From: Candidatus Aenigmatarchaeota archaeon
Lineage (GTDB): Archaea; Aenigmatarchaeota; Aenigmatarchaeia; GW2011-AR5
Assembly (NCBI GenBank): GCA_018304605.1
Contig: JAGVVU010000034.1
Location: 3,555 to 67,554, forward strand
Reading direction: 5' to 3'
Length of the DNA: 64,000 bases
The notes beneath the pieces were generated by a model that was given only the letters and a program-made list of their open reading frames with translations, did not search any database and was not told the origin of the DNA. The position numbers were made by a program, and so were the translations under genes. How positions within the stretch are numbered: position 1 is the first letter of the stretch; each line of letters opens with the position of its first letter. Below, piece by piece: positions 151-47,437 of the stretch.

Positions 151-254
151 ATACCCACACCTTTAGGTGTGGGTTTGTTTTGAACATGGGATCCCGAATG
201 CGCCTCTAATACATGCCGCCTAAAGGCGGCAGTTTCAGGCGCATTCAAGATGAA
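151..254. repeat. Structured repeat element, copy A: hairpin cccacacctttaggtgtggg, then a 10-bp outer stem gaatgcgcct/aggcgcattc enclosing the inner hairpin gccgcctaaaggcggc
   Basis: Near-identical copy at 30231-30334 with compensatory substitutions in both hairpins. Read directly from the sequence. Confidence 0.8.
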
Positions 255-346
255 CTCGTCTCTCTAATTTTCTCCAACAGGCGGTTTGCATACTGAATAC
301 TAACCGGACCAAGAAAAATAAAAATTAGAGTTAAAAGAAAAAATCT

Positions 347-976
347 CTAAACTTTGAGCTTTCTGACCCATCTCTTCGATACGTCAGCAAACGCTTCTTT
401 CGCACCAAGACCGAATGCGAGCGCGAATCCAAGGCCGACCGAGGCTATGATTACCAGCAAGATGTTATTCACCAGACTTGCTGATATTCCCAGTATAGGC
501 AACGCAAGCGCGATTGAAACGTACAAGACAAAGAAGAACAGTGTCTTGCCGACCAATACTGCGTACAGGCTGTTTGCCTTCCTCAGGTGGCTCTTGATGT
601 ATTCTGCCAGCACGTAGCCCACAACCATGATGACTGCGGCTCCGATGATCCTTGGTATGAAGGCGTTTATATCGGCGATCCACAAGGACAGCGCCGTGAT
701 GCCAAGGACTTCCCTGGACAATGCGGCGGTTATGAATCCGAGATATATCCACCACTTTGCTATAACAGAAAACAGGTTTGAAACGCTGATTGCAGGCTTG
801 TGTGTTTCCGTTATGTAGTAGTCCAGCTTGACTCTTTCGAGAACTTCCTTGACAACCCTTCCGACAACCTTTCCGACTACCAGGCCTATGACCAAAAGTA
901 TCACGGCAGCCACGAGGTTTGGAAGGAACGTCACTGTATTCGTGGTTAGTTCGCCCAAGATGTCGACTAACACCAT
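347..976 (-). CDS. Multi-pass membrane protein (conserved TM-helix repeat type)
   Basis: ORF 347-1015. The internal ATG at 974-976 is preceded by GGAGGAG (RC of actcctcc at 983-990). Hydrophobic helices throughout. Confidence 0.55.
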   Translation of the reverse strand: MVLVDILGELTTNTVTFLPNLVAAVILLVIGLVVGKVVGRVVKEVLERVKLDYYITETHKPAISVSNLFSVIAKWWIYLGFITAALSREVLGITALSLWIADINAFIPRIIGAAVIMVVGYVLAEYIKSHLRKANSLYAVLVGKTLFFFVLYVSIALALPILGISASLVNNILLVIIASVGLGFALAFGLGAKEAFADVSKRWVRKLKV

Positions 977-1152
977 TTTTTTACTCCTCCATATAGAATT
1001 CCGCGGCTTGTGCAAACGTGATTCCCGCGTAATTCTCCTTTGTATAAATGGCTAAACCCCGTTAATAAAGATTTTGCTAGAGGAAAAGCATGAAAAATCA
1101 CGGGAAAATCACATCTTCTTGTGTTGGAAGGTGTGATCACAATTTGGAAAAG

Positions 1153-1350
1153 AAAAAAGCGCCGGCGGCAGGATTTTCATCCGTGGTAGCATTAGCGGAG
1201 CCACCTAAGGTTGGTAAGACCTTAGGAAGGATATCCTTCCTCGGTTTTGAACCTGCATGTGCGTCCTCAACAGACGTGCGAAGCACGCCATTCGCAAAGG
1301 CACTCTAGCTCTCAAGGCTAGCGCATTTACCAAGCTCTGCCACGCCGGCA
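1153..1350 (-). ncRNA. Candidate structured ncRNA of about 195 nt, identity unknown
   Basis: On the minus strand the 5' GCCGGCG pairs with the 3' CGCCGGC, extended by GCAG/CTGC. Internal perfect hairpins include GGAAGGATATCCTTCC, CCTAAGG-N9-CCTTAGG, CGTGC-TTC-GCACG and GGATGAAAATCC. There is TTTTTT at the 3' end. A TATA-like TTTTTAAT (plus-strand coordinates 1378-1387) lies about 28 nt upstream of the 5' end. Confidence 0.4.
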
Positions 1351-1430
1351 TTTATTATCAACTCTACATCTCTAAGGATTAAAAATAGCCGCATGACTAA
1401 TCATATAAAAATGAAAACAAAAAGAAAAAT

Positions 1431-1799
1431 TTATTTCTTCTTCACGAGAAATGAGCCGATTACACCGCCGATGAGCCCAAGAACCAGGCCTGCGATTGCC
1501 GCAGCAACCACGGCTACAGCTCCAAGCGCTGCGCCGAATCCGCCAAGTCCGAGTGCCCCGCCGACTGCCGCGAAAAGCACGCCGAGTATTATTCCCTCAA
1601 CGAGCCCTCCGATAAGGCCTGCCAAAAGACCCACTACGAGTCCATCCGTCACGCTCTTGACTTTGGCAAACCATGCAGCTACCAATCCTCCGATTATCCC
1701 GCCAACGAACCCCAAGACGGGGTGCGCCAGGGAAAGGACGATGGTAAGGACGATGAAAGCCACGGCTCCCACCAAAACTGCTTTCCAACTTATAGCCAT
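1431..1799 (-). CDS. Small Gly/Ala-rich (glycine-zipper) membrane protein
   Basis: 122 aa with GxxxG repeats and transmembrane segments. The antisense ORF 1393-1827 is low-complexity Pro/Ala/Thr and is judged the spurious partner. Confidence 0.5.
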   Translation of the reverse strand: MAISWKAVLVGAVAFIVLTIVLSLAHPVLGFVGGIIGGLVAAWFAKVKSVTDGLVVGLLAGLIGGLVEGIILGVLFAAVGGALGLGGFGAALGAVAVVAAAIAGLVLGLIGGVIGSFLVKKK

Positions 1800-2042
1800 A
1801 ATTCTAATTGTTTCGGCGGGCTTTTAAAGCATGGAAGCGCCGACGGCAGGAATTTCTCCAAGGAAGAATAGCTCTTCTGTGGCTTTGAACCTGCAAGTCC
1901 TAGGGACACCAGTTTTCGAGATTCGCCTCACAATTAAGTGATCTGGCGCAATGCCAAGTTTCATGGCGCACAAAATTTGCACGCCTTTATGCGACGTCGG
2001 CTCTTTTTAATACGTTACAGCAGTAACCTTTAAAGTGGTTTT

Positions 2043-2231
2043 ATGAAGGTCAAAATAAACGACAACTCAATAGAGGTTGACAAGGATTCAAATGTATTTG
2101 ATGCCCTTAAGGCGGCAAAAATCAATCCCGAGACAGTTCTTGTCAAGAGAAACAACAAACTAATTCCCCATGACGCTGCTTTGAAAGACAATGATCATAT
2201 ACAGACTGTAACGGTAATCTCAGGTGGCTAA
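2043..2231 (+). CDS. ThiS/MoaD-like ubiquitin-fold sulfur carrier (TtuB/SAMP-like) ending in Gly-Gly
   Basis: 62 aa, C-terminal ...VISGG. Immediately upstream of a TtuA-like PP-loop ATPase. Confidence 0.7.
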   Translation: MKVKINDNSIEVDKDSNVFDALKAAKINPETVLVKRNNKLIPHDAALKDNDHIQTVTVISGG

Positions 2232-2233
2232 TC

Positions 2234-3121
2234 ATGAATTGCAAATGCGGCCGTGATGCCGTTTATCTACGCGTGCAGGAAGGGGTGCATTACTGTCCTG
2301 CATGCTTAAGCAGGCAAACAGAAAGGCAATTCGAGAAAACAATATCCAAGGGAAAAATGCTCGAGAAGAACGACACGGTGGCTGTGGGGGTGAGCGGCGG
2401 GAAAGACTCGATGGTGCTGCTGCATCTCATGAAAAAACTTTCGGAGAAGCTACCGATGAAGCTCATTGCGGTAACCGTGGATGAGGGCATAGCCGGCTAC
2501 AGGGACAGGAGCATTGGGGCGATAAACGAATTCGTAAAAGCCATGGACATAGAGCACCAGACGTTTTCCTTTGAAAATGAATTTGACATTACCATAGACA
2601 ATCTTGTCAAAAACGACCCTTCAATCAAGTCATGCACGTACTGCGGCGTTTTCCGGAGAACCCTCCTCAACAAGGCAGCAAGGGAAGTCAGCGCCACGAA
2701 ACTAGCTGTCGGGCACAATCTTGACGACGAGGCGCAAAGCATACTCATGAACGTGATGCGCGGCGACGTTACCCGGATGGCGCGTCTCGCAAAAACATCG
2801 GAACATTTCGTCCGTCGCATAAAGCCGATGAAAAATATCCCGGAAAAGGAGATTGTGGCATACGCCATACTAAACAACATACCATACTTCGACGGCGAGT
2901 GCCCAAACTCCTTCAACAATGCGCGGCGGGACGTGCAGGCACTGCTCAACAACATGGAGCAGAAATATCCCGGCACGAAAAGCAACGTAATAAGCTTCTA
3001 CAGAAAACTGCCGACATTAGAGGAAAAAGGAATTATCATGCGATGCGCGAAGTGCGGCGAGCCTTCCTCGCATGAAACATGCAAGGCTTGCGAGCTGCTG
3101 GATAAAGTCGGGACAAAGTGA
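2234..3121 (+). CDS. ttuA: TtuA/NcsA-family tRNA 2-thiolation PP-loop ATPase
   Basis: SGGKDS PP-loop. N- and C-terminal CxxC zinc-finger pairs. 295 aa. Confidence 0.8.
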   Translation: MNCKCGRDAVYLRVQEGVHYCPACLSRQTERQFEKTISKGKMLEKNDTVAVGVSGGKDSMVLLHLMKKLSEKLPMKLIAVTVDEGIAGYRDRSIGAINEFVKAMDIEHQTFSFENEFDITIDNLVKNDPSIKSCTYCGVFRRTLLNKAAREVSATKLAVGHNLDDEAQSILMNVMRGDVTRMARLAKTSEHFVRRIKPMKNIPEKEIVAYAILNNIPYFDGECPNSFNNARRDVQALLNNMEQKYPGTKSNVISFYRKLPTLEEKGIIMRCAKCGEPSSHETCKACELLDKVGTK

Positions 3122-3154
3122 CATCTAGAGGCAGTTTTTAAGTGTTTCTGATAT

Positions 3155-3613
3155 TTGCATAGCATGTCAACCGTAGTTATTAAGCGAGCTGAAACGGATG
3201 ATGAAATATTATCGATTATTCCATTAAAGCAATCAGACGATTCTGAATGCATCAAACAACAAGTTCCAGAAGAGGTTGCGCTACAAAGGGTTATCGAATG
3301 GCGCGAGATGCATTATGATGTATGGATGGCAAAAGCGGGGCTTGATGTCGTTGGATATGCCGTCGGCAAGCGGCAAGATGGGGGATATCGCTCCTACGGG
3401 ATCTATGTAGAACCAGCTCATAGAAACAGGGGGATAGGAACCCTTTTAAAAAATGCCCAGATTGAACATGCACGAAAATGCTATTGTGAATACATTTGGT
3501 CAAACGTTTCGGAAAATAATAAACCGAGTATCAGGGTTCAGGAAAAACATGGCTTCGAGTTCGAAAGAAGCGGGGCAGGATACGTTGTTACAAAGAGCCT
3601 GAAAGATTTTTAG
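3155..3613 (+). CDS. GNAT family N-acetyltransferase
   Basis: Motif ...IYVEPAHRNRGIGTLL... typical of the acetyl-CoA binding site. Confidence 0.7.
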   Translation: MHSMSTVVIKRAETDDEILSIIPLKQSDDSECIKQQVPEEVALQRVIEWREMHYDVWMAKAGLDVVGYAVGKRQDGGYRSYGIYVEPAHRNRGIGTLLKNAQIEHARKCYCEYIWSNVSENNKPSIRVQEKHGFEFERSGAGYVVTKSLKDF

Positions 3614-3851
3614 ACTCCGGCCGATTCAGAGCTCATTAAGGTATCACAAAGGACACCAACTTAAGACGTGGTCTTAAGCCTGAGATTCTCCACAGCCAGA
3701 GCCCAAACTAGTCCAATGAAACACTAAATCCTTCCAGAAACGAACAACGGACTGAAGCGCTTTGCGCTTCCGTCCACCTGAGCTCTGATCTTCATAACAG
3801 ATTATGTATCCTTCAGCCCCGTATTTAAAGCTAACCCAAAAAAGCACCTAA

Positions 3852-4664: not shown

Positions 4665-4682
4665 CCTGCCTGTTTCTTTTGA

Positions 4683-6241: not shown

Positions 6242-6547
6242 AACATTACTTGTTCCACTTTACTATTAAAGTCTATATTTCGGGTTTAATGGGATACACG
6301 AAAGCTTTAAGTATTTTTCTATTCCACTATCATATGAAAGTCGAAAATACAAAAGAGGTGGACAAAATGAACCTGATAAAATATGTTCTTGACATGTTCA
6401 GGGAAATGCAGAACGAGCGCCGACAGTGCTATGAATGGTGTTTTGAAGACCCTGAAAAAATGGAAAGACGATTGCGAATATATGACGAAGTGAACATGAC
6501 AATGAGAGGACAATACTAAATACTCAGAAAAATGAGGAGGTGAAAAA

Positions 6548-15176: not shown

Positions 15177-16933
15177 CTAATTTATGAATACCTTCAGCTT
15201 GTCATTCACCAGCGCCCTGAGAACTTCCTTGCCGACCTCGCTGTCCTTTGCCACGCGTATCTGGCTGTTCTTGCCAAGAGTAGCTGAGAACAGATATTCG
15301 TCCTCGACGTAGAAATTCACTATCTTGCCCGGGCGCGCCTCCAGTGTGAAGACGATGTAGGCGCCCGTTTCCTCTTTCTCGAAATCAACCGCATTGCCCA
15401 AAGTGGCTACCTTTGGGGAAATCTCTATGCTTATTCCAAGCTTCTCCTCGAGCGCTTTTACGGTTTCTCCGCCCTTTCCTATGATTCTCGGTATCACGTC
15501 ATTTTCGACCCTGACTATCGCCTTGTTATCGCCGACTATCTCCACGACTGCCGAGTGGTCGAAGCGCCGCAGCTCAGCAAGAAGCTGCTTTTTCGCCAAT
15601 TTCACCAGCCCAGATTCTTTCTTGCTGGCATCTTTCACTGGGATTATCACGTTCTCCTCGCCGTACGTGTAAATTTCGTATTCCAGAGCCGCTGTTTCAA
15701 AGTTCTTCACCTCAACCACCGGACGAGCCAGGTCTGCTTCTGTCATTCCAGTCGGGGTCCGGACAGTCAGCGAAAGCATGTAAACCTTTTCAACACGCCC
15801 CTCTTTTATGTAGATTATCGTATCGATTATGTGCGGAATCATCCCAAGTTCCACGCGGCCGATGAATCGCTGTATGGCATCTATCGGCTCTGTCGCGTGC
15901 ACCACGCCTATCATGCCTATGCCTGCCAGCCGCATGTCGGCGAATATCTCGAAGTCGTTTGTCTTCCTGACTTCGTCGTATATGGTATAATCAGGCCTTA
16001 CAAGCAGTAGCATGTCAGCAGTGTTTTCGAAAGATCCCTTGAGCTTTGCGTACTGCGTTATCTCAGGCTTTACCTGAAGGTCGCGCGGAGATTCCATGGT
16101 CTTGACTATCTTTCCTCCGGACTCCAGAAATTCGGCTATGCTCGCGGCGAAAGTACTCTTGCCAGAGCCGGGTGGACCTGCTATAAGAACGCCGTCGACC
16201 TTTTTAGACAGCCTTTCCTTAAGCTTGTCAGAGAGCTTGTACTCGTCAAGCGTCAGCTTCGTTATTGGCCTGACCACGGTTATCTCTATCCCGTCCGAAA
16301 ATGGCGGACGTGCAATCGCGATTCTCATGTCGCCAAGCTGGACAACGCTGGCCGTATAGCCGCTGACTTCCACAAATGAGTCATCCTCGTAGCGCGCGGC
16401 ATCCATTATCTCCTTTATTATTGCCTCCAGCTGCTCGGGCGTGGTGCGCTCCTCAGATATCCTGACAAGGTCAAAACGGCCCGGCATTCCTCGTTTTGCC
16501 ACTGGCATTGTGCCTTCCTTGAGATGCAGGCTCATGGTGTCCGGAGTCATCATACCGGACAATGCCGTCGTTTTTTTCTTCTCATACGGCTTGAAGTATC
16601 GCGACTTGACGCCCTCGGCCTCCGCGAACATGTACTGGACATAATCCGACGTGTATATGGTAGCGGGCCGCTCTTTGCAAGCTGGATCTCCTCATATGTC
16701 TGGCGACGCCCGCTTTTCGTCATCGTCACGTTGCTGTAGAGCGTGCGCAGCTTCTTCATCTCCTCAAGACCCTTGAAGCCGATTTCCCGGCCCTTGGATG
16801 CCTGAGCACGCAATTCCTCAACAGCAAATTCCGGAATGATTATTTCCGCTTCTGCTATTTCCCCTTTCTCTATCAGATCAGTAAGTATGCCCGATATGAG
16901 CACGCTCGTGTCTGGTACTATTTTTTCTTTCAT
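15177..16933 (-). CDS. PIN-domain / PilT-type ATPase / KH-domain protein (COG1855 family), interrupted by a frameshift near 16640-16690
   Basis: N-terminal PIN motifs (IVPDTSVLI) are in ORF 16550-16933. The PIN C-terminal motif ATIYTSDYVQ, the Walker A motif GPPGSGKST and the KH domain are in ORF 15177-16631, in another frame. Confidence 0.65.
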
Positions 16934-17144
16934 TTAATTCACCTTTTTTATCAAGATATTCGTTTTTGTAACAACATGCATCGTTACAAATGCCTTGCCT
17001 TTATTCTAACATCATCTTTTTCCAGAAGAAGTAAGAGTCAAGATTATTATGACAGGTGTTTATTTAAACCTTCTGAAAAGCCGGCTGCAGGATTGCTCCC
17101 CGACGTAAGCAGGACCAACGCGCAACGCCCGGTTTTCATTTTTT

Positions 17145-17253
17145 GTCAAGCGAAAGCGAACTCCTCTACTACAATACCACATTCCCTGCAATACTTGCTG
17201 TCATGCGCCGGATCGTACGATATCTTGTCCGAGCCGCATTCCATACAGTTCAT
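17145..17253 (-). CDS. Small C4 zinc-ribbon protein (36 aa)
   Basis: MNCMECGSDKISYDPAHDSKYCRECG. RBS GAGGTG 7 nt upstream. Confidence 0.4.
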
Positions 17254-20520: not shown

Positions 20521-21312
20521 GTGATAACTATGGAGAGTGTGTACTTAGGAATTAGAAAGAATAAATTGAAGGCTGTAAAACTTCAAGAGAATAATAAATA
20601 TTTAGGACTTGCTTCTCTTACAGAAGGTTTCAAAAATTCAAGTGTTAGGTTACCAACAAAACTGACTCCGGAATTGGGGGAAGAAATCGGCATTCATATA
20701 GGTGACGGACATTTATCATCTAATCGTTACAGGTACAAACTTTTCGGTAACATAGACGAATCTGAATATTACGAGAATTTTGTGGCTGGATTGTACCAAA
20801 GGCTATACAACATAAACGTGAGATTAGAAAAAAGAGAAAGAGATGGTAATATCATAGGGTTTGAATTTTGTTCTAAACCCGTATGGATTTTCAAAACAAA
20901 AACCATCGGATTGATAACAGGTAGAAAAGACAATGTGTCAGTTCCCATCCTAATTCTAAACTCTAACCCGGCAATTTTGCGGGCATTCGTAAGAGGCTTA
21001 TTCGATACAGACGGGAATCTTTATTTCCAAAGCAGATATGGCTACAAAAACTACTATCCTCTTATTTCTCTTACATCCAAGTCAAAAGATTTATGCAAGT
21101 CGACATGTGAAATTCTGACAAAACTTGGATTCAAGGCAAATTATTACACAACACGAAATGAGGCAGTTGTCCAATTATATGGATATGAAAATCTTTTGAA
21201 ATATGCAAGTGAAATCGGGTGGCACAATACTAAACAGCTCAATAGATTCCTTGATTGGAAAAAACGCTTTCCGAATCTTGTGGAAAAGAAAAGGGCAGCT
21301 ATCGGGATTTGA
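20521..21312 (+). CDS. LAGLIDADG-family (double-motif) homing-endonuclease-like protein
   Basis: Motifs IGIHIGDGHL and LRAFVRGLFDTDGNL. Paralogue of the gene at 57008-57757. Its last 19 nt are antisense to the 3' end of tRNA-His. Confidence 0.7.
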   Translation: MITMESVYLGIRKNKLKAVKLQENNKYLGLASLTEGFKNSSVRLPTKLTPELGEEIGIHIGDGHLSSNRYRYKLFGNIDESEYYENFVAGLYQRLYNINVRLEKRERDGNIIGFEFCSKPVWIFKTKTIGLITGRKDNVSVPILILNSNPAILRAFVRGLFDTDGNLYFQSRYGYKNYYPLISLTSKSKDLCKSTCEILTKLGFKANYYTTRNEAVVQLYGYENLLKYASEIGWHNTKQLNRFLDWKKRFPNLVEKKRAAIGI

Positions 21313-21386
21313 ACCCGACCCGAAAGCTTTCTGTCAGCATAAGCTGGCCACAGGCTTGCATGCTACCAAGCTACACTATAGCTGCC
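21294..21386 (-). tRNA. tRNA-His(GUG) with encoded G-1 and an intron of about 19 nt after position 37
   Basis: G-1 opposite discriminator C73. Acceptor GCAGCTA/TAGCTGC. D arm GTGT-AGCTTGGTA-GCAT. Anticodon loop CTGTGG. T arm TCGGG-TTCAAAT-CCCGA. Confidence 0.7.
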
Positions 21387-29120: not shown

Positions 29121-29657
29121 TTATAGTAAGGACTTCCAATTCTTCATATAAAATTGGGATTTTTTATCGAAGTCTTTTTTGGGTGTAATATCAATACCCA
29201 ATGATTCTAGCTTTTGTTTGAGAAAATAAAACTCCTTCTGTTTAGAAGCCTTGGAACACATCTTTTCAAGCTCAATTATGTAGCCGTGTCCCTTCGTGAA
29301 ATCCAGGCAAACTGTAATGCCACCCCATTTAAATTCAGACCTTTTTCTGAACCATTTTACTTTTATTTTATAGCCTAAATTAAGAAATAATTTTTCCAAG
29401 TTATCAAATTCCTTTCTGTCAAACTTGATTTCTATCTCTTCTCGATGATTATCATGCAATTTGCCTTTTTTCATCCATATTTTAGAAAAGAAATTATTTC
29501 TTTGTATCCTAAGGTCCTGGTCGAAGTAGAAAGTTTCCTGATTGTCGTTTTCTGTAATCATATCAGAATTTTTCTTGAAGAAATCCAACAGTTTCTTGTA
29601 CTGTTCTTTAGAAATAAAGCTCCTGACTTCCACTTCAATATTTTTCATGACAACCAT
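29121..29657 (-). CDS. CYTH-domain protein (class IV adenylate cyclase / triphosphatase fold)
   Basis: EVEVRSF ... alternating Glu/Lys beta-strand pattern of the triphosphate tunnel family. Confidence 0.6.
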   Translation of the reverse strand: MVVMKNIEVEVRSFISKEQYKKLLDFFKKNSDMITENDNQETFYFDQDLRIQRNNFFSKIWMKKGKLHDNHREEIEIKFDRKEFDNLEKLFLNLGYKIKVKWFRKRSEFKWGGITVCLDFTKGHGYIIELEKMCSKASKQKEFYFLKQKLESLGIDITPKKDFDKKSQFYMKNWKSLL

Positions 29658-29669: not shown

Positions 29670-30188
29670 TTAAGTCTTTCCTATATGATACAGGAATCTT
29701 CGGAAACAAAGCTTGAACCATGGCGTGTATTTTCCCGGGTTCTTTTCCATGTCAGCCCGCAGCTCGCCCAGGTCTATCCACTTAAATTCATCAATCTCGT
29801 CTTCATTCGGCTTCACGGGACCGTCATAATATCCGACGAACACATGGTCGAGTTCGTTCTCTCCCCATTCGTCGTCATACTTGGCTGAATATTCAAACTT
29901 GAAAAGAAAATCAGGCTTGCATGCGAACCCCAATTCCTCTTCAACACGACGTTGACCTGCAAGTTCGACAGGCTCGCCGCTCCGCGGGTGGCTGCAGCAG
30001 GTATTGGACCAGAATCCGGGCCAAGTCTTCTTGTGCAAGCTGCGCTTTGTGATAAGAAGCTGGTCTTTATTATTCAATACAAAGACAGAGAACGCGCGGT
30101 GCAAAGGAACGGGATTTCTGTGCGTCTCGAATTTTTCCTTCAGTCCCACCTCGTTGTCCTCGCTGTCCACAAGAATTACTTCTTCCAT
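29670..30188 (-). CDS. idi: Isopentenyl-diphosphate delta-isomerase, type 1 (Nudix fold)
   Basis: HRAFSVFVLNNKDQLLITKRSLHKKTWPGFWSNTCCSHP...GEPVELAGQRRVEEELG matches IDI-1 active-site Cys/Glu motifs. Confidence 0.8.
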   Translation of the reverse strand: MEEVILVDSEDNEVGLKEKFETHRNPVPLHRAFSVFVLNNKDQLLITKRSLHKKTWPGFWSNTCCSHPRSGEPVELAGQRRVEEELGFACKPDFLFKFEYSAKYDDEWGENELDHVFVGYYDGPVKPNEDEIDEFKWIDLGELRADMEKNPGKYTPWFKLCFRRFLYHIGKT

Positions 30189-30230
30189 GAGTAGAATTTA
30201 TTGAGAAAGAGATTAAAATCACATCTTCCT

Positions 30231-30334
30231 TATATCCCACGACTAAAGTCGTGGGTTTGTTGGAAGATGGGATCCCGAATGCGCCTCTAGTATATGCCGT
30301 CTAAAGACGGCAGTTTCAGGCGCATTCAAGATGA
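30231..30334. repeat. Structured repeat element, copy B: hairpin cccacgactaaagtcgtggg, then outer stem gaatgcgcct/aggcgcattc, then inner hairpin gccgtctaaagacggc
   Basis: About 93% identical to copy A over the 3' 80 nt. All differences inside stems are compensatory. Confidence 0.8.
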
Positions 30335-30339: not shown

Positions 30340-30843
30340 TTATAGAAGTTTCCTGCATTCGTTAAATACTCTTATTGACCAACTGCTGAACGGTCTGGGC
30401 TTTTTTCTCATTAAATTTTCTAGCTGGTTAGTAGATAAAAATTTGGCTTCTGAAACTTCTTTGCTGTTGATTTTTATCCTAGATTTTTCTGATATTTTAC
30501 ATGTAAAAATTTCGTCAAATTCTGTTTCTCTTCTTGAGGAAATCTTCATTTTTGATATTTTTCTAACATTCGCCTTTTTGATGCCCAATTCTTCTCTAAG
30601 CCCTCTGATTGCCGCGGACTTATAACTCTCGCCAATTTTGTTATGCTCACCCATAAATTCCCATCTTCCAGGATTTGTATCCGCTTTCATTCCACGTTTT
30701 TGAATCATGACTTCGCCTTTCCTATTAATTATGATTACAAAAACTCCTCTGTGAATAAGCTTGGGATTTTTGTGGCACTCGCTGCGCAGGGCGCGGCCTA
30801 CGACATTGTCATTCTTGTCCACCACGTCGAAATATTCAGGCAT
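30340..30843 (-). CDS. Nudix hydrolase
   Basis: GVFVIIINRKGEVMIQKRG...GRWEFMGEH...ESYKSAAIRGLREELGI Nudix box. Start taken at the internal Met (MPEYFDV). Confidence 0.6.
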   Translation of the reverse strand: MPEYFDVVDKNDNVVGRALRSECHKNPKLIHRGVFVIIINRKGEVMIQKRGMKADTNPGRWEFMGEHNKIGESYKSAAIRGLREELGIKKANVRKISKMKISSRRETEFDEIFTCKISEKSRIKINSKEVSEAKFLSTNQLENLMRKKPRPFSSWSIRVFNECRKLL

Positions 30844-30871
30844 GTCTAAACCTGGCTTGGATGCTTTATAA

Positions 30872-31981
30872 TTATTCTTTCCTGACGCCTTGCCTGTCAA
30901 TAGTCACATCCAGAGGCGTGAGACCTTCGTCCTGCCATGCAGCAGTGATGTTGTTCGCTGTTATGTCGTCGAAGCATACAGCTATCCCGCAATCGCCGCC
31001 GCCTGCACCCGAAAGCTTGCCTGTAGCGCCGTAATCTTCGGCAATCTGGGAAAGCTTCTTCAGCTCAGGCGTCTCGATATTAACGCCGCTTGCCTTTCCG
31101 AGATCAGCCAATGCTTCCTCATTTTCATTAAGGCATTCAAGGAACTCGTCATTATTGCCTGCTTTGAAACTTTCTATTGCCCTGCTTGCTATACAGGCAA
31201 TATCATTGTAAAGCCTGTAGTATTCACTGGAGTTTGCTGCTTTGAACTCGTTCATCTGCTTGATCGCAGCACTTGTCGATGCTGATTCGCCTGTCCAGCC
31301 AACCAAAAGACGAAAGTTGTCAGGCACTTCAAGCTCCTCTATTACAAGGCTGGGCCAATCCTGGCTTACGATGCTCCTTAACGATTCGCCTGCTTCCACC
31401 TTTTTTGTCAGCCATACAGGATCGAAGCGGCTGTAGACGAACAATCCGCCATAAGTTGAAGCAGCCACGTCGAAAGCGCTACCTACCTTGCCTTGTGCAT
31501 AATAGTGGGCTATCGTAGACAGCTTGTAAATCTCGTCCTTCGTTGCATCATAGCCGTGAAAATCTAACACAGCGGCTATCGCTGCGACAACAACGGCTGC
31601 AGAAGAGCCGAAGCCAACTTTTTTCATTTCCCCATTAACCTCGAACTGCGTGTCCCTGCTGCTGGTTGACAAATGAAAGGGCTTTGAATCTATTCCGCTG
31701 TCTTCCAGATACCTCAAGGATACTGACAATGCTTCTCCAATAAGCTTCATAGCGGCTCTTGACTTGTCATCCAGGCCAGAAAAAGAAACTTTGCCGTCTT
31801 CGTAAACAGCCTTAGCATCATGTATCTTGAACTCTTCGGCAGTTACCCTCATTTTGTCCGAAGGTTCGATTGAAACGTGCACGCGGTTGTTGATAGCAGC
31901 CACAAGGCCGTAGTTGCCGACCTCTAGTATCGCCCATTCGCCGCTTATGAAGAGTTTGCCAGGTGCGCTGTATTCCAGCAT
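30872..31981 (-). CDS. mvaK2: Phosphomevalonate kinase (GHMP kinase, bacterial/eukaryotic ERG8 type)
   Basis: APGKLFISGEWAILE N-terminal motif. GFGSSAAVVVAAIAA. C-terminal GKLSGAGGGDCGIA. Confidence 0.75.
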   Translation of the reverse strand: MLEYSAPGKLFISGEWAILEVGNYGLVAAINNRVHVSIEPSDKMRVTAEEFKIHDAKAVYEDGKVSFSGLDDKSRAAMKLIGEALSVSLRYLEDSGIDSKPFHLSTSSRDTQFEVNGEMKKVGFGSSAAVVVAAIAAVLDFHGYDATKDEIYKLSTIAHYYAQGKVGSAFDVAASTYGGLFVYSRFDPVWLTKKVEAGESLRSIVSQDWPSLVIEELEVPDNFRLLVGWTGESASTSAAIKQMNEFKAANSSEYYRLYNDIACIASRAIESFKAGNNDEFLECLNENEEALADLGKASGVNIETPELKKLSQIAEDYGATGKLSGAGGGDCGIAVCFDDITANNITAAWQDEGLTPLDVTIDRQGVRKE

Positions 31982-33014: not shown

Positions 33015-34252
33015 TCACGATAGACCGAGCCTTTTTAAGAGTTCTGGGTGCATCCGCAATTCTTTGAAAATTGCGACCGTTCCAGGCGTGAACTTCTCTT
33101 TCTTCATCATTTCATCTATCCTCTTTACAGGGAAGAATTTTACAGAATCAACTTCTTCCTTGTTTATTCTGAAAGGACCCTCGTGACGTCCCATGTAAAA
33201 CATAATCCGCTCCCTGTCGTGCTTTCCTTCTTCTCTGTAATCTTTCATTGTCACCAGAAGAGGCTTTAGTTTCGTCTTGATTCCAAGTTCCTCCTTCAGT
33301 TCCCTGTATGCGCTCTCGCCATAACTATCGCCGCTGGCAACATGTCCGCTTGCTGATGATGTCCACCAGCCTGAATACAGGTCCTTCTTTTTGCTTCGTT
33401 TCTGCAGGAGGAATTCACCTTCCTGTTCAGTATCATTATATGGACAGAGCGGTGCAACAGCCCTTTCCTGTGGCACTCGTCCCTCGGCGCCTTGCCTATA
33501 ACCTTGTTTGATTTGTCTATGACGTCGAAATATTCTGTATTCTCTGCGTTTAGCGTAGTGATCAGATTTTTCTTATCCAGGACTTTTATTCCCAGTTTTT
33601 TTGCTTCCTTTATATCCTCTTTTAAAACAAAACCCCATGACGCGAGTGCAGCGTTTACACCTGTTGGAATCACTTCTTTTATGTGGTCAATTGAATCTTC
33701 CACGAACATGATATCAAACGTACTAACCTTCTCGCGCCTCGCCACTATCTTAATCAAATCACTCTTGTTTTTCGAAATTGTGCTGTCAAGTATATTCTCC
33801 GGTTTTACGGCAATTTTACTGCGGCAAAGAATATCTATTACCTGGCTTTTTTTGTTGCTGGTCACGATATAAACAGTTTCTTTTCTTGAAAGCCTTTGCA
33901 TGATGGGCACGATAAACCTGAAAGGTCCGTAAAGCCGACAAAACTTTTCTTTGTCTGTCTTAATGAATTTTTCCTTCTCGTCGAAAAATGTATCGGACAT
34001 TATCTTGGCTTTTTCAGGATTTTCTTCTGCAACCTTCCTCACGGCGGCTCTTGTAACTTTCATGTTATTTGATAGCAGAAAGAGAAGCCCGTAATTGTCT
34101 TTTGCCGTGCTTATGTAAGGTCTGTGTTTCTCAATTGACTTAACTGGTGGTGCGTTTTTATTCCCGAGACGTTTCCAAGCCCTATGAGAAAAAAATGCCG
34201 ATCCTTTAGCGCTGTCCGCAATAACCCCGTCGAAATCAAAGGCATAAATCAT
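33015..34252 (-). CDS. HAD hydrolase fused to a Nudix hydrolase, with a -1 frameshift near 33410 at a G-run
   Basis: The HAD motif [10 protein letters not shown] and the Nudix N-terminus [12 protein letters not shown]...[12 protein letters not shown] are in ORF 33296-34252. The Nudix box [10 protein letters not shown]...[10 protein letters not shown] is in ORF 33015-33476. The sequence aggaaggtgaa should be aggaagggtgaa to be in frame. Confidence 0.5.
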
Positions 34253-39670: not shown

Positions 39671-39806
39671 GGGCCGGTAGCTTAGCTTGGTAGAGCATCT
39701 GTCTTATATGACGTGCTTTGATAATAAACAAAATCAAAGCATTTGGCGTGACATCGTCATTGTCTAAGCCAGCAGAAGGTCATGAGTTCAAATCTCATTC
39801 GGCCCA
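39671..39806 (+). tRNA. tRNA with anticodon UAU (Ile, AUA-reading) if spliced at the canonical 37/38 site; intron of about 63 nt
   Basis: Acceptor GGGCCGG/TCGGCCC with discriminator A. D arm GCTT-AGCTTGGTA-GAGC. Anticodon stem TCTGT/GCAGA with loop CTTATA|intron|A. T arm ATGAG-TTCAAAT-CTCAT. The intron has an 8-bp hairpin GCTTTGAT/ATCAAAGC. Confidence 0.6.
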
Positions 39807-39815
39807 CCTTTTTTA

Positions 39816-42621: not shown

Positions 42622-42767
42622 ATACCGAGGAAGGATACATGGTTAAGCTTGCGTTCATCTGCATAAAGCTTATCCTGGCAGATTTGAAAAACAAAGACCT
42701 GATAAGTTGATTTTTCTATTTTTGCTTATTCGAAACTTTTTATACCCCCTCTCCACATAAAGTAAAT

Positions 42768-43193: not shown

Positions 43194-43265
43194 GCAAACT
43201 CCAAACATTTTCTTGCGGTTTTTTCACATATTACGTTTAAATTACCCTTTCACCAAATAGTTTCT

Positions 43266-43868
43266 ATGAGATTCAGCAAGGGTCAGCAGGAGGCGTTATC
43301 TGCCGTACTGATTTCGGGCATACTCATCGGCGTAGTCGGCTCTGTCTATTTCTGGGGCGTGCCGCTGATACAGAAGAACAAAGACATCTCGCTGCTTGAA
43401 ACCTCAGAAAGTTTCATGAGGCAGCTTGACGAGAAGATCAGGTCAGTGGCAAACAATGGCGGCAGGGACCAGATAGTCATCCCAGTCCCTGGAATATTAA
43501 GCTTTGACGGGGCGGAAGTGAAGCTGACAATAGAGACACAGGGGACGATATATGCAACGGACGCGGAGATTCCGCTGGGCAGGAACACCCTGGAGCAGAG
43601 CGGCGGGGGAACATGGGGTATCGACGACCCAGTCATCTTCAACGTGAAAAGCGTAAAGATGGGGGAGAACAACTACAGGAACGAATACACGCTCATCTAT
43701 ATTGAGTTGAGGAACGAGGACTCATTGAGGGACTTCAAGATCGGGCTTACGGGTCCCAGCACCTCAGGCGGCCAGGACAATACGATAATAATGGAGAGCC
43801 AGGGAGACACGACAGCCGAATCTGCAAGGACCTTAATAACTAGCAACGTGAAAATTTCCGTCATATAG
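43266..43868 (+). CDS. Pilin-like protein with class III (type IV prepilin-like) signal peptide
   Basis: MRFSKGQ|QEALSAVLISGILIGVVGSVYF N-terminus. Confidence 0.5.
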   Translation: MRFSKGQQEALSAVLISGILIGVVGSVYFWGVPLIQKNKDISLLETSESFMRQLDEKIRSVANNGGRDQIVIPVPGILSFDGAEVKLTIETQGTIYATDAEIPLGRNTLEQSGGGTWGIDDPVIFNVKSVKMGENNYRNEYTLIYIELRNEDSLRDFKIGLTGPSTSGGQDNTIIMESQGDTTAESARTLITSNVKISVI

Positions 43869-44089
43869 AACAAATTATATTTCTGGCTCGCCGCCCGCTT
43901 TTCTTTAATCCAAAAATCTAGCTTCTTAGAAATGCTCAATGAAAACCAGCAGGGAGGGTATTGTGCTTTCACAATACCCTCTAGTTACTAACCCTATTGT
44001 GGATACACAATAGGGTTCCTGCTGGTTTTCTCATAGGCTTTCTAAGAAGCTAAAAATCTTAATATCCCGCCATGAAGAAACAATGAAAT

Positions 44090-44530
44090 ATGAAGGGACA
44101 GTACAGGATAATAAGCGAGATCATACTTTTCGGCGTCGGAATCCTCATCACCAGCTATGTCATAATAAATTTCAACAACCTGCAAAGCGCCGTGAAGGAA
44201 ATAACCCTGGACGACCAGATGAACAGCGTCGCGGATGTCGTGTCCGCGGCTGTGATCAAGGTCGCAAGCGCCGACAACGCATCAATAAGGCTTGTCATAC
44301 CCGACAAGATATCAGACAGCATCTACAGGATCGCAATAAGGGACGCCGACGGCGGCAAGCTCGTCATAAGCAAGCTTGACGGAACAGCATCCGTCGAGAG
44401 AAAACTCTTTAATATAAACTACGACAATACAATTAGCAGCAACAACGTAATCAACAACAGCGAAGTAGTGAGCAGCGCCCAGTTCATAGAGATTGTCAAG
44501 AACGAGAAGATTACGATTCTAAGGCGGTAG
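44090..44530 (+). CDS. Pilin/FlaG-FlaF-like protein with class III signal peptide
   Basis: MKGQ|YRIISEIILFGVGILITSYVI N-terminus. Confidence 0.5.
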   Translation: MKGQYRIISEIILFGVGILITSYVIINFNNLQSAVKEITLDDQMNSVADVVSAAVIKVASADNASIRLVIPDKISDSIYRIAIRDADGGKLVISKLDGTASVERKLFNINYDNTISSNNVINNSEVVSSAQFIEIVKNEKITILRR

Positions 44531-44532
44531 TC

Positions 44533-46251
44533 ATGGAGAAAAAACTTTTTTTCAAGGTAAAGGGCGGCCGGGGCTTTGCCGTGAAGCCAAGACAGGAGGA
44601 GGCCGTAAAGACGGGGCTTATCGAGTCATCAGCTGCCTTGGTGCCTGCCGCACCTATTCAGATGCAATCATTTCATCAGTTTTCGCCCCGCGTGTACTCC
44701 GTTGAAGGTGTGGCAGTGCCGGACATAAAAAGCGAGAAGATACCAGTAATAGATACGGAAGAGATTCAGCGCACCAACATAAAATATCCGCTTATACCAT
44801 CGAATCCCGCGAAAGGCGAGAGGATTTTTGCCTACGCACACATATACTTCGACAGGCGCTCGGGCGAGCTTGTCTATGACGTGATCGAGCCGCCTGTATC
44901 AGACCAGCAGCTGCTCAATTCCATAAAGGAATACATAGAGGAGAAGCTGGACATCAACTTCAGCCAGATCAGGAAGGGCGACGCAATAAGCTATCTTAAT
45001 GTCGTCTTCTCGAAAGCATTGTCGTACTTTAATACAAAGCTTGACAAGGAAGCAACTGATATACTGAGATATTACGTTGTGCGGGATTTCATAGGGTTGG
45101 AGAAGATAGAGCCGCTCATGCAGGATAAGTACATAGAGGACATCTCATGCGACGGAGCGAACATACCCATCTTCGTTTACCACAGGCTCCCGCAATTCGG
45201 ATCTGTAAAAACATCCATAACGTTCAACAACAGAGATTTGCTGGACTCTTTCGTGAACAAGCTCTCCGAGCGGTGTGGGCGGACGATATCCGTGGCAAAA
45301 CCTCTTCTTGATGGAACTCTGCCAAACGGTTCGAGGCTGCAGGCCACATTGGGCAGTGACATTGCCCGCAACGGGTCCAACTTCACCATCAGAATGTTCT
45401 CAGACAAGCCCATGACGCCTGTGGACCTGATAAAATCAGGAACATGCGACCTCAAAATGATGGCATATTTCTGGCTCCTGATAGAGCACGGATCGTCTGT
45501 TTTGATATCCGGCGGCACGGCTTCCGGCAAGACATCATTGCTGAATGTGCTCTCGCTTTTCATAAAACCTCAGATGAAGATCATAAGCATCGAGGATACC
45601 TCTGAGATAAGGCTTCCGCACATGCACTGGGTGCCGGAAGTCGCAAGAACTCCCATATCCGAGGAGGGCAAGGTGGATATGTTTGAGCTGCTGAGAGAGT
45701 CGCTAAGGCAGCGCCCTGACTACATAATAGTGGGGGAAGTAAGGGGCAAGGAAGCGTACGTGTTGTTCCAGCAAATGGCTGTCGGTCATCCGGGTCTTTC
45801 GACCATACACGCCGAGAACTTCTCAAAGCTCTTCGACAGGATGACCTCGCCGCCCATCAGCCTCCCTCCAAATCTCATGGAAAACCTCGACCTGATACTT
45901 TTCATGAAGCGCGTCAAGCAGGGAAGAAAATACAACAGGCGAATTTTTTCTGCCGTAGAGGTCGCCGGTTTCGACAGCGATGCAAAAATGCCGATAACCA
46001 ACGAGGTGTTCGGATGGGATGCCAAGAGCGACGAATTCAAGACGCTGAAAAAGAGCTCGCTCCTCAAGAAGATATCTGACATGACAGGTCTGACGGACGA
46101 ACAGATAGCAAAAGAACTGGAGCGGAGGGCTAAGGTGATAAAATGGCTCGTCAGCAAGGACATAACCGACTACAGGAAGATAGCCTCCGTCATCAGCATG
46201 TTTTATCTTTCTCCTGATTTTCTCATGGGCCGGATTGAGGGAGAAGTATAG
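44533..46251 (+). CDS. flaI: FlaI/ArlI-like secretion ATPase (VirB11/PilB superfamily)
   Basis: Walker A GGTASGKTS. Asp box. His box. 572 aa with FlaI-type N-terminal domain. Confidence 0.85.
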   Translation: MEKKLFFKVKGGRGFAVKPRQEEAVKTGLIESSAALVPAAPIQMQSFHQFSPRVYSVEGVAVPDIKSEKIPVIDTEEIQRTNIKYPLIPSNPAKGERIFAYAHIYFDRRSGELVYDVIEPPVSDQQLLNSIKEYIEEKLDINFSQIRKGDAISYLNVVFSKALSYFNTKLDKEATDILRYYVVRDFIGLEKIEPLMQDKYIEDISCDGANIPIFVYHRLPQFGSVKTSITFNNRDLLDSFVNKLSERCGRTISVAKPLLDGTLPNGSRLQATLGSDIARNGSNFTIRMFSDKPMTPVDLIKSGTCDLKMMAYFWLLIEHGSSVLISGGTASGKTSLLNVLSLFIKPQMKIISIEDTSEIRLPHMHWVPEVARTPISEEGKVDMFELLRESLRQRPDYIIVGEVRGKEAYVLFQQMAVGHPGLSTIHAENFSKLFDRMTSPPISLPPNLMENLDLILFMKRVKQGRKYNRRIFSAVEVAGFDSDAKMPITNEVFGWDAKSDEFKTLKKSSLLKKISDMTGLTDEQIAKELERRAKVIKWLVSKDITDYRKIASVISMFYLSPDFLMGRIEGEV

Positions 46252-46431
46252 AAGACACGAATTTTTGCGGATTCACTCCCAATGACATCTGATGTGCGTG
46301 CCGTTCCGCCTTGTGAATCTTCAATTCTTGCCTGTATTCTCGCATCTGCGGTCTTTAGACCGCAGCATTCAATGCATTATAGGATAAAACCTTAATATTC
46401 CCCCGTGCGCAAATCATTATTGGTGCTGTAA

Positions 46432-47267
46432 ATGAGCTATGCTGAAGTATCCTACAGGCTTTTCGGCGGTCTGGTAAAATACGCCAAGCCTTATTTTCTG
46501 GACATAAAGGAAGAGCTTCGCCAGGCCAACATCAGCTACACGCTCGAGGAATATCTTTCGATAGCGCTCCTCACGACCGCAGTCACGTTCATCATGGAGG
46601 CGATGATGCTCTCGTTCATATTCGGCCTTCTTGTCTCCCCGATAATAGCCGTAATACTGGCATTGACGCTTTCGATGACGATATCAGGCATACTGTTCTT
46701 CCTGTTCTACTCGTACCCGACAACCGCCTCGAAAAGCAGGGGGACCAAGATAAAGAAGATACTGCCATTCTCCGTTTCCTATATGGCGACGATAGCGAAG
46801 TCGAATGTCCCTCCCATAACCATATTCAAGACACTGAGCGAGTTCAAGGAGTATGGCGCATAGTGAGGGATGTGGAGTTGTTCGGCATGACAACTTCGGC
46901 AGCCATAAAGAAGCAGGCAAAGATAACACCGTCGAAAGAATTCAGGGATCTCCTCTTCGGCATAAATACAATGATAACAAGCGGCGGCAACCTCGGGTCG
47001 TATCTCAAGGACAGAAGCAATGAGCTGATGGGTGACTACAGAAGAAGGATAAGAAAATACTCTCAGGACCTCTCGCTTTATGTCGAAATGTACCTAACAC
47101 TCATAATAACAGGCTCGATATTCTTCATAGTCCTCTCATCCATCATATCGACCATCTCCGCCGGTCTGGGCACGATCCTTGTCCAGACGTTCGTTGTATT
47201 CATCCTCCTGCCGCTGCTTTCCATAGGCTTCATAATACTCATCCGTGCCACGTCCCCGACAGGCTAG
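46432..47267 (+). CDS. flaJ: FlaJ/TadC-like membrane protein, N-terminal domain, interrupted by TAG and a frame change at 46861-46865
   Basis: Two ORFs (46432-46863 and 46863-47267, the second with a GTG start overlapping the TAG) together form one TadC-like polytopic domain. Confidence 0.55.
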
Positions 47268-47342
47268 CATCACGCATAAATTACCCGGCTGAATTGTGTT
47301 TTTAATCCCAGCGCCCAATTATAATGATATGCTCTGATATAA

Positions 47343-47437
47343 CCCACATCTAAAGATGTGGATTTCTATGAGCATAGCATCCAGAATGCATTGAGTTTCA
47401 TCACACGACTAAAGTCGTGTGTTTTCAATGCATTCTC
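47343..47437. repeat. Structured repeat element, copy C (divergent): hairpin cccacatctaaagatgtgg, then 11-bp outer stem gaatgcattga/tcaatgcattc enclosing the inner hairpin cacacgactaaagtcgtgtg
   Basis: Same architecture and conserved GAATGC/GCATTC and CTAAAG loop as copies A and B. Sits between the FlaJ N-domain and C-domain genes. Confidence 0.7.

Follow-up and report, generated by a model that had tools for sequence, protein, structure and literature searches.

Structured Copies in the Window and Their Neighbouring Genes

The window, a 64-kb stretch of DNA, belongs to a lineage of small, uncultured groundwater DPANN archaea (GW2011_AR5 group; its relatives carry the name Candidatus Aenigmatarchaeota). 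It contained three structured copies of approximately 115 nt each, A, B and C, with a common four-helix architecture (Table 1). Copy density was low in this genome, with three copies and one fragment in ~72 kb. An integron attC site was considered and rejected: such sites form arrays between promoterless cassettes beside an intI gene, whereas the copies, located among housekeeping genes, were separated by 17-30 kb and no integrase was present.

Copy A extended from an invariant 5' AT to a 3' end in CAAGAT. It was located 95 nt beyond the stop codon of an MscS-like gene (347-976, minus strand), and both neighbouring genes were antisense to it. The 151-nt spacer between the minus-strand NUDIX genes 30340-30900 and 29670-30188 consisted mostly of copy B, antisense to both genes and located 7 nt past a stop codon. 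Copy C lay in sense orientation in a 196-nt spacer, with plus-strand T2SSF-domain (FlaJ-like) genes on either side. The earlier note on this DNA had described copy C as splitting the two halves of flaJ. This was not the case: in other assemblies of this strain, two intact genes with a T2SSF domain are annotated, of 285 and 321 aa, and a relative possessed the same two genes without an element between them. The decayed half copy was located between the first of the T2SSF genes and a gene for a FlaI-like ATPase. Module 1 was missing, the 5' arm of P3 had been lost by mutation, and the remainder was a near match to the 3' half of another copy, L083, except for a flipped loop.

Table 1. Positions and structural parts of the element copies in the window.
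Feature	Type	Position	Strand	Helices and hairpins	Covariance-model score (bits)
Copy A, full element	1	136-251	+	P1 140-146/182-188; P2 154-161/166-173, loop TTTA; P3 196-205/237-246; P4 214-220/225-231, loop TAAA	141.7
Copy B, full element	1	30218-30332	+	P2 30236-30255; P4 30295-30312; TAAA loop in each	140.4
Copy C, full element	2	47324-47441	+	P2 47344-47361; P4 47402-47421	118.1
Decayed half copy	2 (3' half)	46343-46387	+	P4-type hairpin ctgcggtCTTTAGaccgcag, loop flipped, then type-2 3' arm and tail CATTCAATGCATTATAGGATAA	17

The three copies and the fourth site were where the earlier note had placed them, the related hairpin reported at 46347-46378 lying within the half copy. Copies A and B were, as claimed, near-identical (89% over 83 nt), and copy C differed in sequence but not in architecture. 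Identity between the P4 hairpin of copy C and the P2 hairpin of copy B was 92%. All three copies folded far better than shuffled sequence on both strands (z = -5.7 to -9.5, equalled by 0 of 200 shuffles). A covariance model made from A, B and C and scanned over the 64 kb recovered only these three full copies (E = 1e-20 to 1e-25) and a weak extra match at 46333-46376. Among the 25 CTAAAG/CTTTAG hexamers of the window, eight capped a perfect stem of at least 4 bp, seven of these in stems of 6-8 bp.

Modular Architecture and Covariation

The basic unit was a hairpin module of ~55 nt. Its lower stem measured 7-10 bp and was followed by a 5' internal loop (YTRATAYA) and an upper stem of 7-8 bp, with a C-G closing pair and a TAAA loop on top; the 3' internal loop started with TTT. 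In the window element, two such modules (P1/P2 and P3/P4) followed each other head to tail as a dimer, with the invariant AT as the 5' boundary and GAT(N)A as the 3' boundary. The length of about 100 nt proposed earlier described a real element but fell short of its extent: conservation began ~15 nt further 5', at the invariant AT, and took in the additional helix P1. This helix encloses the 5' hairpin, with covarying arms such as ATGTTC/GAACAT, ATCTTC/GAAGAT and ATGCTC/GAGCAT.

An alignment was made of 27 distinct copies, drawn from groundwater metagenomes, the window, the related MAG GW2011_AR5 and one further MAG. In this alignment 99% of the stem cells were paired, double compensatory changes affected 18 of 31 pairs, and all four helices covaried, in agreement with the covarying stems described from the window. 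The difference between the 5' hairpins of A and B, previously taken as compensatory, was partly a loop inversion (TTTA versus TAAA). The internal loops and the TAAA loop were more conserved than the upper stems, the internal loops being conserved within each type. On the element strand G·T pairs exceeded A·C pairs (13 versus 3 cells, corresponding to ~6-7 versus 3 events).

It is conceivable that the copies are genes for trans-acting structured small RNAs, the two hairpins of which, with their internal loops, would serve as guide or protein-binding pockets in the manner of bridge RNAs or H/ACA guide RNAs. The earlier note had named a new small ncRNA family among its options. The covariation, the conservation of the internal loops within each type and the excess of G·T over A·C on one strand are in favour of this reading, as is a weak architectural likeness between a two-hairpin H/ACA snoRNA and copy C read on its minus strand. 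We nevertheless regard it as very improbable. Covariation alone is no proof of an RNA here, because DNA palindromes also keep both arms complementary, and the G·U strand bias is not decisive; loop conservation and the G·T excess would also fit some RNA-level selection. An Rfam scan of the window at the gathering threshold found only two tRNAs, and no copy reached a gathering score: in E-value mode the best matches were DUF3800-IX (22 bits versus 36.8) and TtnuHACA11a (36 bits versus 100). By inspection, neither an H box nor a conserved ACA (ANA) box, which H/ACA guides carry directly 3' of the lower stem at ~14-16 nt from the pocket, followed the hairpins, the sequence 3' of the lower stem being AAGATGA or GGGATCC on the plus strand and TGAT.. 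or GGGATCC on the minus strand. The upper stems were perfect Watson-Crick helices, closed by C-G and capped by TAAA, with no K-turn or K-loop, the tandem sheared G·A motif bound by L7Ae. The upstream flanks were random up to the element edge, so that no promoter was shared, and a shared T-run terminator was likewise absent. No copy adjoined a recombinase gene. Identical or near-identical copies at many unrelated loci, the existence of truncated, monomeric, nested and internally inverted forms, and a copy within a translated gene, all described below, also weigh against RNA genes.

Dispersal, Mosaicism and Orthologous Sites

A covariance-model search beyond the window, which the earlier note had put forward, recovered further copies. 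With a strict pattern, ~30 distinct copies with unrelated flanks were found in groundwater metagenomes, three in GW2011_AR5 and one in a second MAG, and several were identical over ~120 nt despite different flanks. The covariance model added more diverged copies, present in some organisms at 3-5 per ~12-kb contig. About 37 distinct loci were seen.

The copies were mosaics. Module swaps, a monomer, tandem copies, truncated copies and nested double-hairpin inserts were all present, and identical nested composites recurred with different flanks or different partner modules. Loops were flipped between copies (TTTA versus TAAA, TTTTAA versus TTAAAA). In the copy L068:9846-9975 the entire segment between the P1 arms was the exact reverse complement of that of copy B.

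Occupancy differed between relatives. At the NUDIX site where the window has copy B, the AR5-like orthologous region showed a 24-nt junction without element, in a comparison that is not clean, the window also carrying an extra NUDIX gene there. Conversely, the AR5-like region possessed an element between a zinc-ribbon TF gene and a PIN-ATPase gene, whereas the corresponding window spacer (16931-17148) had none and the conserved stretches beside it aligned closely. In two related operons, L008 and L089 (72-76% amino-acid identity), the element was located in different spacers. The orthologous spacers had diverged, and no clean empty site was seen at nucleotide resolution. Copies are gained and lost at orthologous sites, exchange modules, accept nested hairpins, and flip loops or the segments between arms. 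The element is small, non-coding and multi-copy, with presence/absence differences between relatives, as MITE-type elements are.

Nearly all copies were intergenic, often a few nucleotides from a stop codon, with seven in convergent, two in divergent and 13 in tandem spacers. This distribution, the stable hairpins on both strands and the known action of bacterial REP elements on messages, as stabilisers or processing barriers, would agree with a selected cis-acting mRNA module, i.e., an intercistronic or 3'-end stabiliser, processing site or terminator recruited repeatedly for its function. The earlier note had listed a 3'-UTR/terminator module among its options. Such a role is unlikely as the explanation of the family. 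Orientation relative to the adjoining genes was random (six sense and seven antisense in tandem spacers), the adjoining genes differed from genome to genome and were functionally unrelated, the occupancy of orthologous sites was not conserved, no conserved terminator was found in the flanks, and one copy occupied a coding sequence. The excess of convergent spacers would be equally expected from purifying selection against promoter hits.

An In-Frame Copy in a Racemase Gene

The element L097:5907-6036 was located inside the aspartate racemase ORF L097:5450-6313 (minus strand), the single case of insertion into a gene among the ~37 copies. The insert measured exactly 114 nt, or 38 aa, in frame between ADFI and VMVCNTIH, with GAT at both junctions. 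It was absent from all 11 aligned close homologues, and the other matches listed were mostly 214-263 aa long, compared to 287 aa for this ORF. The insertion point lay four residues ahead of the catalytic Cys motif and the ORF was intact. This stop-free insertion in a conserved ORF is of the kind known from the Rickettsia palindromic elements (RPE), and it shows that a copy can enter coding sequence and survive there, provided that it keeps the frame and contains no stop codon.

An intact ORF with an insert so close to the catalytic motif could also be imagined if the element were intron-like and cut out of the RNA, e.g., by the bulge-helix-bulge endonuclease of archaea. No insertion site would then do harm, and the element ends can indeed pair (CATCTT with AAGATG). 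This is extremely improbable. A bulge-helix-bulge cannot be drawn at the junctions, and random flanks make a conserved exon-intron helix impossible. The insert was read in the sole open frame of six, exactly the one used, as expected of a translated RPE-like insertion, and its final residues HVI rebuild the strand preceding VMVCNT.

Ends of the Element and a Model for Its Spread

The 5' edge was AT in 27 of 27 copies, and the flanks beyond were random and A-rich. The element started with ATCACAT.. (or ATGATAT..) and ended with ..CAAGATNA (or ..GGATAA), so that terminal inverted repeats amounted at most to ATC...GAT, or only to AT...AT. Target-site duplications, considered earlier as a sign of MITE origin, could be read in two ways: AT was invariant at both edges, which fits a 2-bp AT duplication equally with insertion beside AT without duplication. 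None of the loci examined contained a parent IS, no TnpA or TnpB gene lay near the copies, no recombinase or integrase gene adjoined them, and ~290 kb of element-bearing loci contained no multi-copy protein family. As a weak test, tblastn with IS608 TnpA and an E. coli RAYT gave no match at E <= 1 in 0.53 Mb of archaeal sequence.

We conclude that the copies most likely form a dispersed, mosaic family of non-autonomous palindromic "selfish" DNA repeats, and not a new RNA gene. The REP/MITE-like option of the earlier note is the one supported by dispersal, mosaicism, inversion and the in-frame insertion. We propose that the spread would be catalysed in trans by some enzyme. The absence of terminal inverted repeats, the lack of any duplication beyond 2 bp and the hairpin at both ends would suit a hairpin-recognising single-strand mechanism, for which IS200/IS605, PATE and REP-RAYT may serve as models, better than a classical DDE-transposase MITE. 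Inversion between arms flips the loops or the whole inter-arm segments. The complementarity of the arms is probably kept by the need of a hairpin for mobilisation and/or by intrastrand template switching. In copies transcribed within a message, the hairpins may form stability or processing barriers in the manner of REP elements, which we consider a side effect and not the cause of the element's existence.

Hairpins in Viral Contigs and Significance

The hairpin consensus CCCAC-NN-C-TAAA-G-NN-GTGGG-TTT was found at 40 or more distinct places among the viral contigs of IMG/VR. It had no Rfam family. There, too, the hairpin rested on a lower stem that covaried and had an internal loop, in many cases ~16 nt ahead of a start codon. 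There is a small chance that the hairpin module is a functional unit recognised by some undescribed machinery, and not merely a stable palindrome. We leave room for this since the stems turn over quickly whereas the apical C-TAAA-G and the internal loops persist, since modules trade entire hairpins, and since the same hairpin consensus recurs in viral contigs. If the archaeal and viral modules did share a function or a mobilising enzyme, they would represent a new class of structured elements common to chromosomes and viruses. The shared factor might then be an RNA-binding regulator, or else a nuclease or recombinase specific for hairpins.

The genomes of DPANN archaea are very small, and to our knowledge their mobile DNA has been little described. 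A proliferating, cassette-shuffling repeat capable of being translated within an enzyme, paralleling the RPE of Rickettsia, another reduced genome, bears on the persistence of selfish DNA under genome reduction. The strong "covariation" seen here stems from DNA palindromes and calls for caution in RNA-motif discovery, and metagenome assemblies of these lineages are likely to break at the repeats. With its sharp ends and the racemase insertion, the element offers definite starting material for finding the mobilising enzyme.

Comparison with Known Systems

The likeness to archaeal H/ACA guide sRNAs was limited to the architecture, with hairpins each containing a large internal loop; the element differed in having no ACA/ANA box, K-turn, K-loop or near-threshold Rfam score, and in being multi-copy and mosaic. 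The BOX elements of Streptococcus pneumoniae are modular and built from a small set of exchangeable boxes, which form hairpins and vary in number and order. The present family shared the modular build but was archaeal, unrelated in sequence and did not follow the boxA-boxBn-boxC logic (BOX elements are listed in PMC10969869).

Elements derived from IS200/IS605, such as PATE, have a hairpin near each end and neither terminal inverted repeats nor a long target duplication; a short fixed sequence ends the left flank, and a fixed sequence lies within the element at the right end. The anatomy of our non-autonomous archaeal repeat, with subterminal hairpins, a fixed AT on the left and GAT on the right, was compatible with this type. 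It differed from it in that no parent IS with the same ends is known and no TnpA or TnpB gene lay nearby, and a 2-nt target would be unusually short. The terminal inverted repeats and 2-10 bp target duplication of classical MITEs were not clearly present; archaeal MITEs of Sulfolobus, Halobacterium and Haloquadratum are listed in PMC10969869.

The family resembled the REP/BIME (REPIN) elements of Proteobacteria, extragenic multi-copy imperfect palindromes that form mosaic clusters of a few kinds of units and whose arms stay complementary as the sequence drifts (PMC3116915, PMC12306157; roles reviewed in PMC12306157), and like them it was enriched at gene 3' ends. Unlike REP/REPIN, there was no 5' GTAG-type tetranucleotide, the units were longer (~55 nt with an internal loop), and no gene for RAYT, the Y1 HUH transposase whose gene REPs flank, was found in the weak tblastn search.

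RPE can occupy protein-coding genes in frame and are then translated (PMC10969869). The family differed from them by its archaeal host, the absence of sequence similarity, the dimer of hairpin modules with swapped cassettes, and an in-frame insertion found once in ~37 copies where it is the common case for RPE. Both are palindromes of ~100-150 bp in a small, reduced genome, without coding capacity of their own, dispersed among unrelated genes and capable of a translated in-frame insertion, here the 38 aa of the racemase.

Structured copies in the window

The three copies and the fourth site described in the earlier note were all located at the positions it had given. A search of the window with a covariance model seeded with copies A, B and C returned only these three full copies, with a weak extra match at 46333-46376. 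The copy number in this genome was three plus one fragment in approximately 72 kb. As had been described, copies A and B were similar (89% identity across 83 nt), and copy C shared their layout with a different sequence. Each copy folded much better than shuffled controls on both strands (z = -5.7 to -9.5), and of 25 CTAAAG/CTTTAG hexamers that the window contains, 8 capped perfect stems of 4 bp or longer. The structured copies are real, and chance is excluded as their cause. The hairpins first recognized were retained, and the 5' limit was moved approximately 15 nt upstream, where conservation begins at an invariant AT. The helix list was also incomplete: it missed P1 (ATGYTC...GARCAT), which encloses the 5' hairpin and covaries among copies. 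Helices P1 and P2 make up the 5' module, and P3 and P4 the 3' module. The positions of all features are collected in the Table.

The window proteins recurred, identical, on many groundwater-metagenome contigs. The isoleucyl-tRNA synthetase was 83% identical to its counterpart in the MAG "archaeon GW2011_AR5", and further relatives bear the name Candidatus Aenigmatarchaeota. The window thus derives from an uncultured DPANN archaeon of the GW2011_AR5 lineage.

Table. Coordinates of the elements and of other features in the window and in metagenome or IMG/VR loci (L-numbers).
Feature	Sequence	Position	Strand	Remark
Copy A	window	136-251		full, type 1
Copy B	window	30218-30332		full, type 1
Copy C	window	47324-47441		full, type 2
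Fourth site	window	46343-46387		decayed half copy
Copy in racemase gene	L097	5907-6036
Aspartate racemase ORF	L097	5450-6313	-
Monomer of the module	L093	2482-2554
Copy with inverted segment	L068	9846-9975
Double-hairpin insert	L067	100-161		in P2 loop
Double-hairpin insert	L090			in P2 loop, same insert as L067
Double-hairpin insert	L101	5990-6045		after P2
Double-hairpin insert	L083	4300-4355		after P2
Double-hairpin insert	L079	1600-1660		in P3 internal loop; approximate
Viral hairpin	L017	1624-1703
Viral hairpin	L052	76-148
Viral hairpin	L029	1398-1468
Empty spacer	window	16931-17148		occupied in AR5-like region
CYTH-domain gene	window	29121-29657
NUDIX paralogue	window	29670-30188	-
NUDIX paralogue	window	30340-30900	-
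NUDIX paralogue	window	33015-33476	-
First T2SSF gene, ORF 1	window	46432-46863
First T2SSF gene, ORF 2	window	46863-47267
Gap	window	37870/37871		76-80 nt; within 144-aa ORF
Gap	window	46858/46859		22-73 nt; frameshift
Gap	window	54291/54292		31 nt
LAGLIDADG_3 ORF	window	20521-21312	+	free-standing
tRNA-Pro gene	window	21293-21385	-	intron-containing
tRNA	window	39671-39806	+	136 nt; Rfam only
LAGLIDADG paralogue	window	57008-57757	-

Dispersed copies and covariation

The earlier note had called for a search beyond the window, and further copies were found in MAGs and in metagenomes. With the strict pattern ATCCNGAATGC...CTAAAG...GCATTC, the species-representative genomes yielded three copies in GW2011_AR5 and one in a second MAG, 86-89% similar to the window over the elements only, with dissimilar flanks and different neighbour genes. 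The same pattern matched 36 metagenome loci, including approximately 30 distinct copies with unrelated flanks and two chance matches; several of these copies showed identity over approximately 120 nt, yet their flanks differed. Model R2, for which 27 distinct copies were used, revealed more diverged copies on the same metagenome contigs, up to 3-5 per approximately 12 kb. The element is dispersed among unrelated flanks.

Covariation across the copies was strong. In the alignment of the 27 distinct copies, P1-P4 were paired in 99% of cells and both-sided changes affected 18 of 31 pairs, bearing in mind that six P3 pairs and the P4 loop were fixed by the search pattern. None of 500 shuffles reached the observed pairing values, and slid registers all fell far below them. 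The two halves of the element share homology, as in GATATGCTCC...GGAGCAT and GAATGCGCCC...GGGCGCATTC, and the element is therefore a dimer whose unit is a hairpin module of approximately 55 nt with an internal loop; a monomer of this module was also present. Assigning a strand from G·U pairs was abandoned, since the excess of G·T over A·C on the element strand (13 versus 3 cells) came down to approximately 6-7 versus 3 independent events, too few to decide.

Mosaicism, nesting and inversion

Modules were exchanged between types: at five loci a type-2 5' module was joined to a type-1-like 3' module, and copy C has a P4 hairpin that matches P2 of copy B at 92% identity. Inserts of 54-62 nt, each a double hairpin, were nested at several places within the element, and the same nested composites were seen repeatedly at different loci. 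These double hairpins constitute a second family, with stems of 9-10 bp and 3-nt loops, and similar small hairpins occupy many spacers of these genomes. Tandem and truncated copies both occurred. Inversion between arms was visible as flipped loops in copies identical in every other respect (TTTA versus TAAA, TTTTAA versus TTAAAA), and at one locus (L068) everything between the two P1 arms was the exact reverse complement of its copy B counterpart.

Edges, orientation and site occupancy

Flanking sequence was random as far as the invariant AT that marks the 5' edge, and again from just past the GAT(N)A of the 3' edge; no shared promoter or terminator was found in it. Copies with scorable neighbours lay in 7 convergent, 2 divergent and 13 tandem spacers; in the tandem spacers six were sense and seven antisense. 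Orientation relative to genes is random.

Position was not conserved, and elements were gained or lost at orthologous sites. One spacer is occupied by an element in the AR5-like orthologous region and empty in the window, the stretches flanking it aligning closely. The same region had no element at the NUDIX site occupied by copy B, a comparison made unclean by an extra NUDIX gene in the window. Three NUDIX paralogues lie inside a cluster of mevalonate-pathway genes in the window, against two in the AR5-like relative, which is also without the CYTH-domain gene. Two operons with 72-76% protein identity (L008 and L089) carried the element in different spacers. No clean empty site was found within the strain, all other assemblies of which carry identical copies, or between species, whose spacers were too diverged for base-level boundaries.

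A single insertion into a gene was observed, in the ORF of an aspartate racemase. It lengthened the ORF by 38 aa (114 nt), placed between ADFI and VMVCNTIH, was absent from all 11 aligned close homologues, and was read in the sole stop-free frame of six. It sits four residues ahead of the motif with the catalytic Cys (VMVCNTIH), and its final residues, HVI, appear to reconstitute the strand that comes before.

The flaJ region and other features of the window

The statement that copy C splits flaJ was wrong. Other assemblies of the strain have two intact T2SSF-domain genes (285 and 321 aa), and copy C lies in the 196-nt spacer between them. The frameshift dividing the first gene was unique to the window, which lacks nucleotides there relative to the other same-strain assemblies. 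A relative (L093, FlaI 41% identical) had the same two genes and a spacer without the element. The fourth site, reported as a related hairpin, is indeed present and represents a type-2 element reduced to its 3' half, which closely resembles that of the L083 copy save for a flipped loop. Two further stretches are missing from the window by the same comparison, and the three gaps reflect either artefacts of assembly or deletions at the strain level. A tRNA called by Rfam went unreported by ARAGORN; its span implies a long intron. One LAGLIDADG_3 ORF abuts the tRNA-Pro gene, and no LAGLIDADG gene was called at the corresponding place in the AR5-like region.

Alternative identities

No Rfam family was reached by the elements at the gathering threshold, and E-value mode gave weak matches to the general architecture alone. 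ARAGORN and Rfam were blank at the copies as regards a tRNA-like origin. For a C/D box sRNA, CUGA and GAUGA-like strings existed in some copies, in the wrong order and unconserved; for an H/ACA sRNA, the ACA box and K-turn were lacking. For a bridge RNA or omega RNA, no recombinase, IscB or TnpB gene adjoined any copy; for integron attC sites, there was no array, and no integrase gene adjoined any copy. The sole hint of a solitary CRISPR repeat was CRISPR-DR53 (18 bits, E = 0.37). Reading the TATA-like 5' loop as a promoter conflicted with copy A and with copies in convergent spacers, and the bulges of a bulge-helix-bulge intron could not be drawn at the junctions.

A hairpin CCCACNNC-TAAA-GNNGTGGG-TTT was encountered at 55 viral loci of IMG/VR (L011-L065), 40 of them distinct. 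It was intergenic, often approximately 16 nt 5' of an ATG, with several copies possible per contig, and in 29 of 40 a covarying lower stem of 5-8 bp lay beneath it, the internal loops being rich in pyrimidines (WTTCMT / TTTYCY). No Rfam family matched it, and BLAST of these regions against annotated phages gave nothing informative. The conservation of the C-TAAA-G apex and internal loops despite stem turnover, the exchange of hairpins between modules, and the recurrence of this hairpin consensus, seated on a covarying lower stem, at 40 or more distinct viral loci leave a low probability of a dedicated function or partner for the module.

Nature and probable mobility of the element

The earlier note had left open a small RNA, a REP/MITE-like element or a terminator module. 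The REP/MITE-like reading is well supported. The interpretation as an RNA gene is not supported, given the dispersal, the mosaicism, the inversions, the random orientation and the copy inside a gene. Together with edges devoid of signals and unconserved position, these point to a DNA repeat. A need for folding, intrapalindromic template switching or the two combined may maintain the complementarity of the arms, and this would generate apparent compensatory changes without selection at the RNA level. REP-like effects on transcripts would be plausible by-products.

Such a DNA repeat would be mobilised in trans by a separate enzyme. The search for target-site duplications, suggested earlier to test a MITE origin, found none longer than the invariant AT; terminal inverted repeats were absent, and a hairpin was present near each element end. 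On these grounds a hairpin-recognising single-strand mechanism, of the IS200/IS605-PATE or REP-RAYT type, would fit better than that of a DDE-type MITE. Counting against it, tblastn detected no Y1 transposase in 0.53 Mb, a weak test, and no multi-copy transposase or other protein family was found in the element-bearing loci.

Comparison with known systems

Several known repeats are analogous to the present family (PMC10969869, PMC3116915, PMC12306157), none of them related to it in sequence. Rickettsia palindromic elements (RPE) are alike in size, in the reduced host genome and in their in-frame insertion, and REP/BIME and BOX elements in being mosaics of palindromic units; archaeal MITEs and PATEs are among the closest analogues. 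Classical MITEs differ by their defining terminal inverted repeats, absent here, and REPs by the GTAG head and RAYT gene that define them, neither being found here, although the RAYT search was weak. The family is best filed under a known kind, the non-autonomous palindromic repeats, here in DPANN archaea.
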